From assembly GCA_963848295.1 (NCBI GenBank), contig CAWKDB010000010.1, positions 1,792,001 through 1,856,000 of the forward strand: a stretch of 64,000 nt of DNA, in the 5' to 3' direction. Numbering within the stretch: the stretch's first letter is position 1; every line of letters starts with the position of its first letter. This DNA is from an uncultured delta proteobacterium (GTDB lineage Bacteria; Myxococcota_A; Polyangia; Haliangiales; Haliangiaceae). The translations under genes were made by a program, and so were the position numbers. Shown piece after piece: positions 53,367 through 56,385 of this stretch. A model generated the notes under the pieces. It was given only the letters and a program-made list of their open reading frames with translations, was not told the origin of the DNA and ran no database searches.

Positions 53367-53474
53367 GGCCGATCGATCGATCGGAGTCCGCAAGGCCCTC
53401 CGGTACGGAGGCGTGACTTGGGTCACGATCGCCGCGGTTGTCGGCGCACGGTCGCTCGGGCTAGGCTAGACGCC

Positions 53475-53822
53475 ATGGAGTGGCGACGGCGTTTGGTCGA
53501 GCTGGTCAAGGCGGGCGGCGTGATTGGCGGCCTATCCGCCTGCGGTGTCGTTGGTGGCATTCCGTGCGGGAATGCCAACCCGGACCCGTGCATCTGCGGC
53601 CGCACACCGGCCGACGACCCGCAGTGCGTCGCCGAGAAAATGTGCAAGGACAGTGGCGACTACTGGGCATTCGACGACATGCCCAACGGCTCCGACGGTC
53701 TCAGGGGCCGCTGCGAAAGCTCTCTACCCGACGCTGCGATCGATGCGCGACCGGATGCGGAGGCGATCGACGCCGCCATCGATGCCACCATTCCTGACGC
53801 TGTCGGCTCGACCGCTCACTGA
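53475..53822 (+). CDS. Small Cys-rich twin-Arg-like lipoprotein (CGNANPDPCIC)
   Basis: WRRRL signal, lipobox LSAC, six further Cys, DA-rich tail. Confidence 0.7.
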   Translation: MEWRRRLVELVKAGGVIGGLSACGVVGGIPCGNANPDPCICGRTPADDPQCVAEKMCKDSGDYWAFDDMPNGSDGLRGRCESSLPDAAIDARPDAEAIDAAIDATIPDAVGSTAH

Positions 53823-53831
53823 GCTCGGCCG

Positions 53832-54575
53832 ATGCGCGTGCAGGTCGAGCTTCCCGCGGCCAAGCTCGACCGCTTCTCCAGAGCGCAGATCGAATTCGCG
53901 AGCGCGGCTTGGCCACTGCGCGCCGCCGAGGAGCTGCGGTCCGCGCTGATCTATCGTGCGCTCGCGCGATCGAGTCACGACGTGCTCCCGGCATTCGCGG
54001 ATCGATTCTTGGCTGTGGCGAGCGAGGAGGTCGGGCATGCCCGGCTGTGCGCGATCTTGGGGGCGCGATTCGGAGCACACGCACCTCACTACGACGCCGA
54101 GCCAGTCCGCGTCCGGCTCGCACGGGTTCCCGACCGGCTTGGCCGAACGATCGCGCTGGTCACCGGGGAGGTCGCGATCGGCGAGACGATCTCGATGGCG
54201 ATGTTTCGAGAGAGCCGGCGGGCCGCGACCGAGCCACTGTCGCTCGCCGCGATCGAGCTCATCCTTGCCGACGAAGCCCGCCACCATCAGCTCGGATGGG
54301 ATGCCCTCGAGGCGCTCGGCCCGAGCGAGGCGATGCAGCGCGAGGCGACGAGCGCGCTCGCGAGCTCCGAACAACAGATCGCCGTGCCCGCCATGCGCTT
54401 CCTCGAGCGCGGCGCCCATTTCGATCCGGCCTGGGCTGCGCTCGGTGTGATCGAGCCGGGGCGCCGCGTGGATGCGTTCTACGACGCGGTCGAGCAGCTC
54501 GTCTTGCCACGACTCGATCGGCTCGGACTCGACGGCGCGCGCGCGTTCACCGACCGCTATCGCTCAGGCGGCTAG
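53832..54575 (+). CDS. Ferritin-like diiron-carboxylate protein
   Basis: E(AEE)...EVGH...E(GET)...EARH ligand pattern; no signal peptide. Confidence 0.82.
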   Translation: MRVQVELPAAKLDRFSRAQIEFASAAWPLRAAEELRSALIYRALARSSHDVLPAFADRFLAVASEEVGHARLCAILGARFGAHAPHYDAEPVRVRLARVPDRLGRTIALVTGEVAIGETISMAMFRESRRAATEPLSLAAIELILADEARHHQLGWDALEALGPSEAMQREATSALASSEQQIAVPAMRFLERGAHFDPAWAALGVIEPGRRVDAFYDAVEQLVLPRLDRLGLDGARAFTDRYRSGG

Positions 54576-55634
54576 CGCGATCACGAACAGCGCACCGCCG
54601 CCCGGACCATCCTCGACGTGGATCGTGCCGCCGTGGCCTTCGACGATGCGCTGGCAGATCGCGAGGCCGAGGCCGAAGCCCTTGCCGGCCGCGCGATCGG
54701 TCGCCTTGTGCACGCCGCGCGCGAACGGTTCGAAGATCCGCTCGCGCATGTCGGCCGGCACGCCGGGCCCATGATCTTCCACGCTGAGCCTGCGCGCGCT
54801 ACCGACCTTCACGGTGACCGCGGCGTTCGCCGGCGAGTGGTTGATCGCGTTGCGCAGCAGGTTGTCGAACACGATCCCGAAGGCGCCGGGATCGACATCG
54901 GCGGTCGCAGGCGCACCCGGTGCGAGCTCGAGGATGACATCGTGCTCGGCGGCGTAAGCCGATGCACGCTCGATCGCGGCCGCAGCGAGCGTACGCAGCT
55001 CGCGCGGCTCCCGCTTGAGCGCCGCCGCGCCAGCGCGCGATAGCACGAGTAGCTTCTCGACGATGTCGCCCATCCGATGGACCTCGGCTAGTGCGTCGTC
55101 GGCGACATGCTCCCAGTGGCTCGCGGCGCGCGGCTTGCGGCGCGCGACCTCGAGGTTCGTCGAGATCACGGTCAGCGGCGTGCGCAGCTCGTGCGATGCG
55201 TTCGCGGCGAATTGCTTCTGCTCTTTGACCCCGACCTCGATCCGCTCGAGCGCGTCGTTGAGCGCGAGCGACAGCCGATCGAGCGCGTCGCCGTCGCCGC
55301 TGACCGGCAGCCGCTCCTCGAGCCGTTGCCCGCTGAGCGCGGATGCGTGCGCGATGACCTCGTCGAGTCGCTTCGTCGTGCGCTGGGTCAGCGTCCGCCC
55401 GAGCACGAGCGATAGCCCGATGCCGATCGGAGCCGCGAATGCGAGCGCGGCGCCGACCTCCTTGATGATCACGATCGGCGGATCGTCGATGTACACGCCC
55501 GGTGCACACTCCTCGTGGAGCTCGGAAATGTAAATGACGATCGCGACGACGGTTCCGAACATCGCCATGCCGAGCACCATCGCCACCGCGATCGCGCGGC
55601 CGAGGCCGCGGCCCAGCGTGGTCTGTTCGCTCAT
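54564..55634 (-). CDS. Sensor histidine kinase (OmpR-partner type)
   Basis: Two TM, HAMP, SHELRTPL, NLLRNA, DHGPG and GFGLGL. Confidence 0.92.
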   Translation of the reverse strand: MSEQTTLGRGLGRAIAVAMVLGMAMFGTVVAIVIYISELHEECAPGVYIDDPPIVIIKEVGAALAFAAPIGIGLSLVLGRTLTQRTTKRLDEVIAHASALSGQRLEERLPVSGDGDALDRLSLALNDALERIEVGVKEQKQFAANASHELRTPLTVISTNLEVARRKPRAASHWEHVADDALAEVHRMGDIVEKLLVLSRAGAAALKREPRELRTLAAAAIERASAYAAEHDVILELAPGAPATADVDPGAFGIVFDNLLRNAINHSPANAAVTVKVGSARRLSVEDHGPGVPADMRERIFEPFARGVHKATDRAAGKGFGLGLAICQRIVEGHGGTIHVEDGPGGGALFVIALAA

Positions 55635-56323
55635 CCCGCAACTACGAGTCTGATGCCGGCGCCGCGAACGGTCTCGATCGTGATCGGGAACCCGGTGAGC
55701 TTCTTGCGCAGGTGCGTGAGGTGAACGTCGATGACGTTCGTCCCCGGATCGAAGTCGTAGCCGAACGCTTCGCGCAAGATCTCCGACCGCGTCACGACCT
55801 CGCCACGACGCCGTACGAGCGTGCCGAGCAACGCGTACTCGCGCGGCGACAGCGCCGCACTCATCTCGCCCGACTCGACGACCAGATCATCGCGCATCCG
55901 CAACGGCACGTCGGACGACGGCGTCCACCGCGGGCCACCGGCGCGGCGGGTCAGCGCACCGATGCGTGCGACGAGCTCGGCGAACACGAACGGCTTGACG
56001 AGGTAGTCGTCGGCCCCGCGGTTGAGCGCTTCGACTCGCGCATCGACCGCATCGCGCGCGGTGAGCACGAAGATCGGCACGTGAACGTGGGCTTGGCGCA
56101 GCTCGCGCAACACGTCGAGGCCATCGCGATCGGGCAAGCCGAGATCGAGGATCATCAAGTCCAGGTCGCGGCGCGTGCCGCGCTCGACCGCCTTCGCGGC
56201 GGTATCGAGCACCTCGACGGTGAATCCGTCCTCGGTCAGCCCCTCGGCGATCGTCGTCGCGAGCTGGTGATTGTCCTCGACCAACACGATCCGGACCCCG
56301 GCGGGGTGTTTCGACTCGCTCAT
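55631..56323 (-). CDS. OmpR-family response regulator
   Basis: LVED, ILDLGLP, GADDYLVKP and wHTH ETVRGAG. Confidence 0.93.
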   Translation of the reverse strand: MSESKHPAGVRIVLVEDNHQLATTIAEGLTEDGFTVEVLDTAAKAVERGTRRDLDLMILDLGLPDRDGLDVLRELRQAHVHVPIFVLTARDAVDARVEALNRGADDYLVKPFVFAELVARIGALTRRAGGPRWTPSSDVPLRMRDDLVVESGEMSAALSPREYALLGTLVRRRGEVVTRSEILREAFGYDFDPGTNVIDVHLTHLRKKLTGFPITIETVRGAGIRLVVAG

Positions 56324-56385
56324 CCTCACCAGCGTCGTACGAAGCCGAGCGCCGAACCATTAAGTCTGGCCGAAATCCGCTGGCG

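Follow-up and report, generated by a model that had tools for sequence, protein, structure and literature searches.

A candidate precursor-maturase cassette of Polyangia: a Cys-rich lipoprotein-like protein and a ferritin-like diiron enzyme

What does a cytoplasmic ferritin-like protein do directly behind the gene for a small, Cys-rich protein that carries an export signal? This question is raised by two adjacent forward-strand genes in a 64,000-nucleotide (nt) stretch of DNA (the window; G000:C10:1792001-1856000, G000 being the label of the source genome). The first gene (53475..53822) encodes P0001, a 115-aa lipoprotein-like protein, and the second (53832..54575), which follows after a spacing of 9 nt, encodes P0002, a ferritin-like diiron-carboxylate protein of 247 aa without a signal peptide. 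The answer that we favour, with somewhat better than even confidence, draws on comparative evidence and on models: the enzyme would grip a leader helix within the signal peptide of the precursor and likely oxidise Asn33 in the cytoplasm, after which export, lipidation and disulfide formation would follow. An earlier note on this DNA had described a TAGGCT box 7 nt before the ATG, a 9-nt gap, a 115-aa first gene with WRRRL, LSAC, six further Cys and a DA tail, and a second gene with a full E..ExxH..E..ExxH set and no export signal, and each of these elements lies where it had been placed.

A conserved two-gene cassette

P0001 belongs to no family in Pfam or NCBIfam. It carries WRRRL, a lipobox-like LSAC (53532..53543) with Cys23 as the predicted lipidation site, the sequence GIPCGNANPDPCICGR and a DA-rich tail, and its six further Cys are found at positions 31, 39, 41, 51, 57 and 80. 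The core, C31-G-N33-A-N-P-D-P-C39-I-C41 (53565..53597), contains the proposed modification site Asn33 (53571-53573) and opens a six-Cys mini-domain from C31 to C80 (53565..53714), which consists of a loop, a helix (49-59) and a beta pair (63-66/78-81). In the AlphaFold2 (AF2) model, the predicted local distance difference test (pLDDT) is 76-90 over residues 31-70. The mini-domain probably closes three disulfides after export. Fold searches with the precursor model gave a best Z of 2.3 and nothing in Foldseek at E<=0.001, which does not establish a new fold.

The pairing of the two genes was followed across 104 loci, comprising 23 genome loci, the best 80 of 100 metagenome loci and the window, 92 of which have at least 400 nt of upstream sequence. 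A precursor with the C-x-N-x-x-x-D-P-C core lies directly upstream of the enzyme in 81 of these 92 loci, and in 69 of the 78 clusters formed at 90% identity. The nine missed clusters include one with the precursor downstream (L046), two with variant cores that keep C-x-N (L082, L120/121), three with decayed precursors (L049, L072, L118) and three enzyme fragments (L050-052). The self-contained two-gene unit of the earlier note is borne out by these counts as a dedicated pair with a conserved core. Independent occurrence of the two genes is found in part: the enzyme is almost never seen without the precursor, whereas the Cys-rich domain is also seen where the enzyme is missing, though then solely in altered form. 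In the decayed copies (L049/L139, L050-L053, L072, L118) precursors are frameshifted, truncated or inverted, or the enzyme is fragmentary; they suggest that the cassette is often lost, although some of them may be assembly errors.

No conserved third gene was found at these loci, as no neighbour family occurs in more than 3 of the 104. A class-wide draw of 401 genomes contained a close enzyme in 12 and a precursor match in 19, and in a phylum-wide draw of 401 genomes, with 12 candidates scored per genome, a precursor was present only in G000 and G289, both from within the class. Because no third gene recurs and the pair is absent after clpX in relatives (0 of 10 with sequence there, by our own gene calls, a count on which a link to clpP-clpX was rejected), the pair is best described as a patchy, self-contained and conserved two-gene cassette of Polyangia.

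The precursors follow the general logic of RiPPs (peptides made by ribosomes and modified after translation), with a conserved leader, a separate core, repeated cores and several precursors per enzyme, in keeping with the RiPP-like character that the earlier note had proposed. Thus, the core is repeated 2-3 times in 9 of 69 precursors, at least two leader-bearing genes occur at 13 of the 104 loci (near-duplicates included), and the linker between lipobox and core varies freely in length. In one genome (G018; locus L036, the same as L002, 4033-4989) leader and core front a 318-aa body, and at L165 (218-1148) a leader and a C-V-N-C core stand on a frameshifted long open reading frame (ORF); the leader-core unit can apparently front larger proteins. 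When the enzyme tree was compared with core subtype, 6 changes were needed, as opposed to 23.7 in shuffles. The comparison used 72 rows, 7 loci having been set aside because they were partial, out of frame or did not match the core, and it demonstrates clustering and not co-evolution.

The diiron protein and the leader

The predicted diiron ligands of P0002 are E34, E66xxH69, E118 and E148xxH151, and all six are unchanged throughout 60 close and 109 broadly aligned homologues. P0002 matches Pfam Rubrerythrin over residues 33-151 (E 1.7e-5) and has 285 homologues at E<=0.001, whose names indicate Kofleriaceae and Polyangiaceae. Its N-terminus is not hydrophobic, and among 120 enzyme N-termini only 2 score above 1.9 in hydrophobicity. 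The AF2 model is all-helical (pLDDT 96.4), and the closest folds are a PaaA-like protein (Z 19.4, root-mean-square deviation (rmsd) 2.6, 208 residues aligned), PaaA (Z 17.7, rmsd 2.9, 210 aligned) and the aldehyde-deformylating oxygenase (ADO; Z 17.3, rmsd 3.4, 212 aligned), the last of which is ranked first by Foldseek. By fold and ligand pattern P0002 belongs with the ferritin-like diiron-carboxylate proteins, and it would bind two metal ions, Fe or Mn, and activate O2.

The type of chemistry can be narrowed further at the second ExxH motif. AurF has a His four residues before this motif, which we take to be an extra (third His) ligand. Its H-L-R-D-E(-T-A-H) aligns with I-L-A-D-E of P0002, where the position is occupied by Ile144, and across 109 rows Ile occurs 91 times, Leu 16 times and His 0 times. 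Because the third His is missing at the AurF position, the site resembles that of a 2-His/4-carboxylate hydroxylase, which is favoured over an N-oxygenase. An AurF/CmlI-type N-oxygenase was rejected on the same absence and on an NF045603 score of 16 with a cut-off of 620 (P0079); three close homologues narrowly pass Pfam PF11583 (30-40 bits, cut-off 29.6), and P0002 has no PF11583 match. Rubrerythrin peroxidases have a diiron bundle followed by a rubredoxin-like Cys4 domain, and this identity was likewise rejected for P0002, in which the match ends at residue 151, a single Cys is present and the C-terminal extension is all-helical. The enzyme has no Pfam match to an RRE (PqqD-like) domain for leader binding, and clustering of the neighbours brought out no conserved gene; in the model a helical extension takes this part. 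No DUF692 was found in Pfam and NCBIfam scans of the pair. A protein atlas returned only unnamed or automatically named clusters, and no fused enzyme-precursor form appeared among the paralogues of G000 itself.

After the four-helix bundle P0002 continues with about 80 residues of additional helices. This C-terminal extension (residues 177-243; 54360..54560) is predicted to be a built-in leader-binding surface, and its residues E180, L191, Y217, R242 and Y243 are invariant in the close clade and variable between clades. Enzyme position 33, beside the ligand E34, is Glu in the close clade and Ala, Asn or Gln in others, and behaves as a specificity residue might.

The counterpart on the precursor is the leader helix W3-x-x-R6-L7-x-E9-L10-x-x-A13-G14-G15 in the signal peptide (53481..53519), which is the predicted docking site of the enzyme and of which residues 3-13 are helical in the AF2 model of P0001. 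The N-terminal consensus of 69 distinct precursors is x-W-x-x-R-L-x-[ED]-[LMI]-x-L-A-G-G; W and R were the anchors of the search expression, so conservation is biased there, and the other positions are unbiased. A is present at W+10 in 68 of 68 precursors and the two Gly in 65 and 66 of 68. To judge from this pattern, leader conservation goes far beyond what an export signal needs. Bacterial lipoproteins have a basic N-region, a hydrophobic stretch and a lipobox Cys at about 15-35. In 69 of 69 precursors the leader is followed by a first Cys within positions 19-27, mostly at 22, and small residues precede it, but many of the boxes depart from the canonical form (AAAC, AAGC), the hydrophobicity of the stretch is weak and W+6 is usually acidic.

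A complex of the enzyme with precursor residues 1-48 and two irons was modelled with our own alignments. It scored 0.82 compared with 0.44 for the best control; among solved pairs 116 of 157 come up to the score mark, among mismatched pairs 2 of 215. At least 57% of contacts are shared between runs, and the partner pLDDT is 55 or higher. As a check on the pairing proposed by the earlier note, the model thus supports binding. In the best-defined contacts, W3, R6, L7, L10, A13, G14 and G15 meet residues 177-192, 209-217 and 240-243 of the enzyme, and the modelled interface on the precursor side covers residues 2-3, 6-7, 10 and 13-19; the leader helix is predicted to dock on the C-terminal extension of the enzyme. 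The interface list of the best run also includes residues 32-33 of the precursor, and 29 and 33 of the enzyme, so that precursor 32-33 may touch the enzyme next to E34.

The location of this grip also bears on how the precursor leaves the cytoplasm. The earlier note had taken WRRRL for a twin-arginine translocation (Tat) signal, and a Tat substrate might even carry the folded diiron protein out, forming a membrane-anchored complex for redox or metal handling. The window copy does read RRRLV, its signal is weakly hydrophobic, and RRxF-like leaders exist in some distant clades. Nevertheless, twin Arg is present in only 15 of 68 precursors, the first Arg often being replaced by D, G, E, N or Q, the Tat-like pentamer RRx[FLIVM][hydrophobic] occurs in 1 of 69, and what the enzyme grips in the model is the signal peptide, a part that cleavage would remove. 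The twin-Arg look is a feature of the window copy that is not conserved; Tat export was rejected for lack of conservation, and co-export through Tat is barely credible.

Asn33 as the candidate modification site

A natural control for the role of the core is provided by proteins of one genus that also match the precursor profile. These orphans share the domain, carry an ordinary signal and have no adjacent enzyme, and their loops are C-P-S-Q-N-P-D-P-C-like, with the first Asn missing. No close enzyme was found in 8 orphan genomes (best E 2.5e-24, as opposed to 2e-56 or better for the clade). To avoid circularity, a profile was used that starts after Asn33 and omits the leader, with the top 8000 candidates taken and proteins of at least 89 aa scored. 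It retrieved 90 proteins, 69 with and 21 without Asn33. Among the former, 60 have a WxxR/K leader, 7 only the AGG end of the leader and 2 neither; among the latter, the leader is present in 0 of 21 and all six Cys in 21 of 21. The loop is G-N (G-N-x-x-x) in 69 of 69 proteins of the Asn class, compared with 11 different segments among the 21 orphans, in which the remainder of the domain is tightly conserved. Leader, Asn33 and enzyme are therefore jointly absent from the orphans. Since the orphans keep six Cys, vary the loop and lack the leader, the Cys residues are probably structural, and it is Asn33, not Cys, that appears to track the enzyme. The leader-bearing signals are also less hydrophobic than the orphan signals (1.91 +/- 0.34, n=69, vs 2.56 +/- 0.22, n=16, as the best 10-residue Kyte-Doolittle mean, the 16 being the complete orphans, picked by hand).

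Cys as the target, which the earlier note had suggested, is weakened by this control. The enzyme may modify core Cys into a heterocycle or thioether in the manner of MNIO (multinuclear non-heme iron) enzymes, possibly together with Asn33, and C31, C39 and C41 are indeed invariant in alignment A5 and flank Asn33. Moreover, in signal-bearing MNIO RiPPs it is as a rule Cys that is modified, at least in the systems that these papers set out (PMC11626156, PMC13056109). However, the orphans without leader and Asn33 retain their six Cys as structural disulfides would, and many distant partners possess only the lipobox Cys, which makes Cys chemistry distinctly unlikely.

These distant partners belong to a wider superfamily, in which enzyme homologues of 25-35% identity also follow lipoprotein-like ORFs with basic leaders that are specific to each clade. 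A strict script, from which 5 loci with short upstream sequence were dropped, scored a lipoprotein-like partner at 56 of 101 loci as opposed to 48 of 600 control genes. Asn-Pro-type motifs are carried by 37 of the 56 partners, compared with 14 of the 600 controls, and the remaining partners have a Gly-Pro-x-x-Pro-Pro tail (12/56) or other motifs (7/56). Many partners with an Asn motif have only the lipobox Cys, and the motif occurs in up to 6 copies within low-complexity spacers. Locus L010 and one alignment row come from the unpublished genome G010, on which no claim rests.

A dedicated interaction need not be catalytic, and the ferritin-like protein might bind the signal without altering the precursor, either as a holding chaperone or as an export gate that senses iron, oxygen or peroxide, with Asn33 serving as a contact. 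Three points favour such a holder or sensor: the complex model is confident in its leader interface, any dedicated interaction would account for leader and Asn33 being lost together, and the Pfam match is Rubrerythrin. We nevertheless regard it as unlikely, because all 109 homologues retain the six ligands, the fold is nearest to oxygenases with substrate channels (PaaA-like Z 19.4, ADO Z 17.3), and distant partners with up to 6 copies of the Asn motif suit repeated modification rather than one docking site.

A catalytic role could also consist of cleaving the backbone at Asn33 (at N-Calpha, as in MovX), by which the Cys-rich domain would be released or a short amidated lipopeptide left. For one MNIO, the oxidative formation of an amide directed at Asn is known, in a case that, as described, concerns a C-terminal Asn (PMC12452194). 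The free variation in length of the lipobox-core linkers would be compatible with a cut, yet cleavage in the cytoplasm would separate the domain from its export signal, and the orphans carry the same domain intact behind an ordinary signal. Cleavage is therefore very unlikely.

According to the mechanism that we favour, oxidation of an internal Asn, the signal-less enzyme would grip the signal helix of the nascent precursor in the cytoplasm, and an O2-activating dimetal centre would act on Asn33 of the C-x-N-x-x-x-D-P-C loop. The weakly hydrophobic signal would leave time for modification ahead of export by Sec and signal peptidase II (SPII). The precursor would subsequently enter the Sec and lipoprotein pathway, be lipidated at Cys23 and close its disulfides. 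Electrons would be supplied by host carriers, because no reductase is encoded. C-H oxygenation of Asn33 (beta-hydroxy-Asn, +16 Da) is the likeliest single chemistry, although as a specific choice it is tentative; ranked next would be a 2- or 4-electron oxidation that joins Asn33 to Cys31 or to the backbone, and a cut at Asn of the MovX type (N-Calpha cleavage). What results would be a mini-protein that is anchored in the membrane and displays a modified Asn loop, and by analogy with bufferins one may speculate that it is a metal-binding or envelope-stress factor.

Several observations weigh against this proposal. In two genomes, G290 (80% complete) and G289 (97%), an enzyme match is missing, and the precursor sits where its contig ends. 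The orphan genomes are 73-91% complete, and the orphans form one clade (SH-aLRT 93 in a quick tree of 52 columns) and hence one evolutionary event, so that the joint absence counts once and could reflect a loss or a gain in the other proteins. The calibration of the complex score fits only roughly, with own alignments and iron riding along, and the contact of G32/N33 comes without a named residue pair at a partner pLDDT of 56-67. In the superfamily, 3 of the 37 Asn-motif calls (L187, L202, L218) look spurious, and 45 of 101 loci scored no partner, several of them through visibly missed lipoboxes. Because 12 of 56 tails lack an Asn motif and these 45 loci are without a scored partner, Asn chemistry does not appear to be universal in the superfamily. 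Finally, the conservation of Asn33 could serve binding or folding rather than modification.

It is evenly balanced, in our judgement, whether the cassette is one subfamily of a large and so far undescribed group of Polyangia RiPPs that are anchored as lipoproteins, in which stand-alone ferritin-like diiron oxygenases use the export signal as a leader and oxidise internal Asn residues. As part of the same reading, other clades would use other motifs, and the products would be membrane-tethered, multivalent mini-proteins for metal binding or signalling. If true, a ferritin-like diiron fold would be added to the RiPP maturases, lipoprotein-RiPP chemistry would reach beyond MNIO enzymes, the signal peptide would double as a leader, and an overlooked layer of envelope chemistry in soil myxobacteria, with an undescribed way to tailor surface proteins, would come into view. 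Leader-guided oxidation of an internal Asn in a portable loop would further be a possible tool for protein engineering. The orphan clade offers a ready negative control and names Asn33 as the residue of interest, and two genes without a partner protein make the system tractable in E. coli.

Related cassettes, genomic surroundings and known systems

Other members of the superfamily display different partners. The Gly-Pro class (L171, L172, L188, L189, L192, L209, L215, L217, L227, L232, L238, L241) ends in (W/E/I/P)-G-P-x-x-P-P after a Cys-rich stretch and has no Asn motif; here the same enzyme superfamily may perform a different chemistry, on Gly, Trp or Pro. G000 itself has a second cassette (L242; G000:C10:3636900-3639900), in which two Cys-rich lipoprotein-like genes in tandem, bearing C-N-P-P-P motifs and a leader of the form F-A-x-P-F, precede a distant enzyme paralogue (C10:3637226-3637993, minus strand), and this cassette type recurs at about 20 loci from related genomes. 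A third paralogue (L243; G000:C10:4563400-4566400) has upstream a small one-Cys lipoprotein-like ORF with repeated W-x-I-I-D-like words, and the partner of a fourth (C2:546821-547666) is not obvious. At L184 (1571-1897) the partner ORF contains YDGGFHG and a MYXO-CTERM sorting domain (20.5 bits, cut-off 20), a candidate second mode of anchoring. Apart from this single match, the family scans, which covered both proteins as well as 16 and 12 sample partners, did not assign a defining family.

In the window, the second gene runs into the 3' end of a convergent histidine-kinase gene. The pair and the convergent kinase and response-regulator genes together occupy 53367-56329, between clpX and an outer-membrane-protein gene, and the kinase/response-regulator pair comes closest to the heavy-metal sensor family TIGR01386, with a score under the cut-off. 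The outer-membrane-protein gene lies directly 3' of clpX in two relatives (L250, L254), and for this reason the block looks inserted. A link to the convergent two-component genes was rejected, as they do not recur at other loci of the pair, and a repeat search of the locus returned matches at chance level only.

The TAGGCT hexamer upstream of the first gene (53462..53467, forward strand; ATG at 53475) resembles a -10 element. Among 6444 genes of G000, called with our own codon model, TANNNT is most frequent at spacings of 6-7 nt from the called start (415 + 272 genes), compared with only 13-40 genes at spacers 0-4 and 12-19, and TAGGCT is among the commoner hexamers at this peak. A -10 box is therefore credible, and TAGGCT is plausibly that of a leaderless promoter; a canonical sigma-70 scan at the locus gave no match. 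TANNNT lies 4-8 nt 5' of the start in only 8 of 69 homologous precursors, so the box is not a family trait. A sigma54-like motif (TGGY-N7-TTGC) is found instead within 80 nt upstream of 14 of 68 precursors, as opposed to 11 of 4243 control windows. The -24/-12 motif ends exactly 13 nt 5' of the start codon in 10 of 18 loose matches, with L031, L032, L054, L056, L060, L064 and L131 as examples. This suggests that sigma54 transcripts of the homologous precursors are leaderless, the window copy having a -10 box instead. Over the whole of G000, TANNNT is strongly enriched 5-9 nt 5' of called start codons, which suggests that leaderless transcription is widespread in the source organism.

Among known enzymes, P0002 shares its fold and the E/ExxH/E/ExxH pattern with the ferritin-like oxygenases SSO1313 (4mud, PaaA/PaaC-like), PaaA (3pvr), ADO (5ux2) and AurF (3chh), from which it differs by an identity of 10-18% and by the lack of a reductase or other subunit encoded nearby. 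PaaA, ADO and AurF-type diiron oxygenases act on small molecules. No example of a ferritin-like diiron fold as a peptide maturase and no description of the precursor-enzyme pair were found in the literature searched, most subscription papers lying outside its scope. AurF-like genes co-occur with RRE-containing RiPP-type clusters in a preprint whose passage on them does not state action on a peptide (PMC13622209), and a review of heme-oxygenase-like enzymes, where it mentions ferritin-like enzymes, treats them merely as a distinct class (PMC13108848).

Bufferins and oxazolins resemble the Polyangia cassette in that small, folded, Cys-rich precursors bear a signal, sometimes with duplicated domains or lipoprotein signals (PMC11626156, PMC12452194), and in cytoplasmic iron-dependent modification, which is proposed here. 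As these papers outline the pathways, an MNIO acts with a DUF2063 partner and Cys is converted to thiooxazole (PMC11626156, PMC12452194), and the signal peptide of bufferins is dispensable for modification on overexpression (PMC11626156). Neither P0001 nor P0002 matched bufferin- or oxazolin-type families in the family scans.

The DAG-RiPPs DybA/DybH and NedA/NedBC offer a precedent for the logic proposed here. As outlined in their main text, they are minimal clusters of a lipoprotein-signal precursor and a cytoplasmic, oxidative non-heme iron enzyme; modification is proposed to precede export and lipidation, DybH needs no partner protein, and such pathways are expected to be leader-independent (PMC13056109). 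Neither 'ferritin' nor 'diiron' appears as a word in this main text (PMC13056109). Modification is proven for the DAG-RiPPs, whereas the Polyangia pair is known from sequence and models. The enzyme is an MNIO (DUF692 TIM barrel) there and a ferritin-like four-helix diiron protein here, the target is Cys there and probably Asn here, and the signal here is itself conserved and modelled as a docking leader. Common to both is the arrangement of a precursor with a lipoprotein signal, called here by sequence, beside a signal-less cytoplasmic enzyme.

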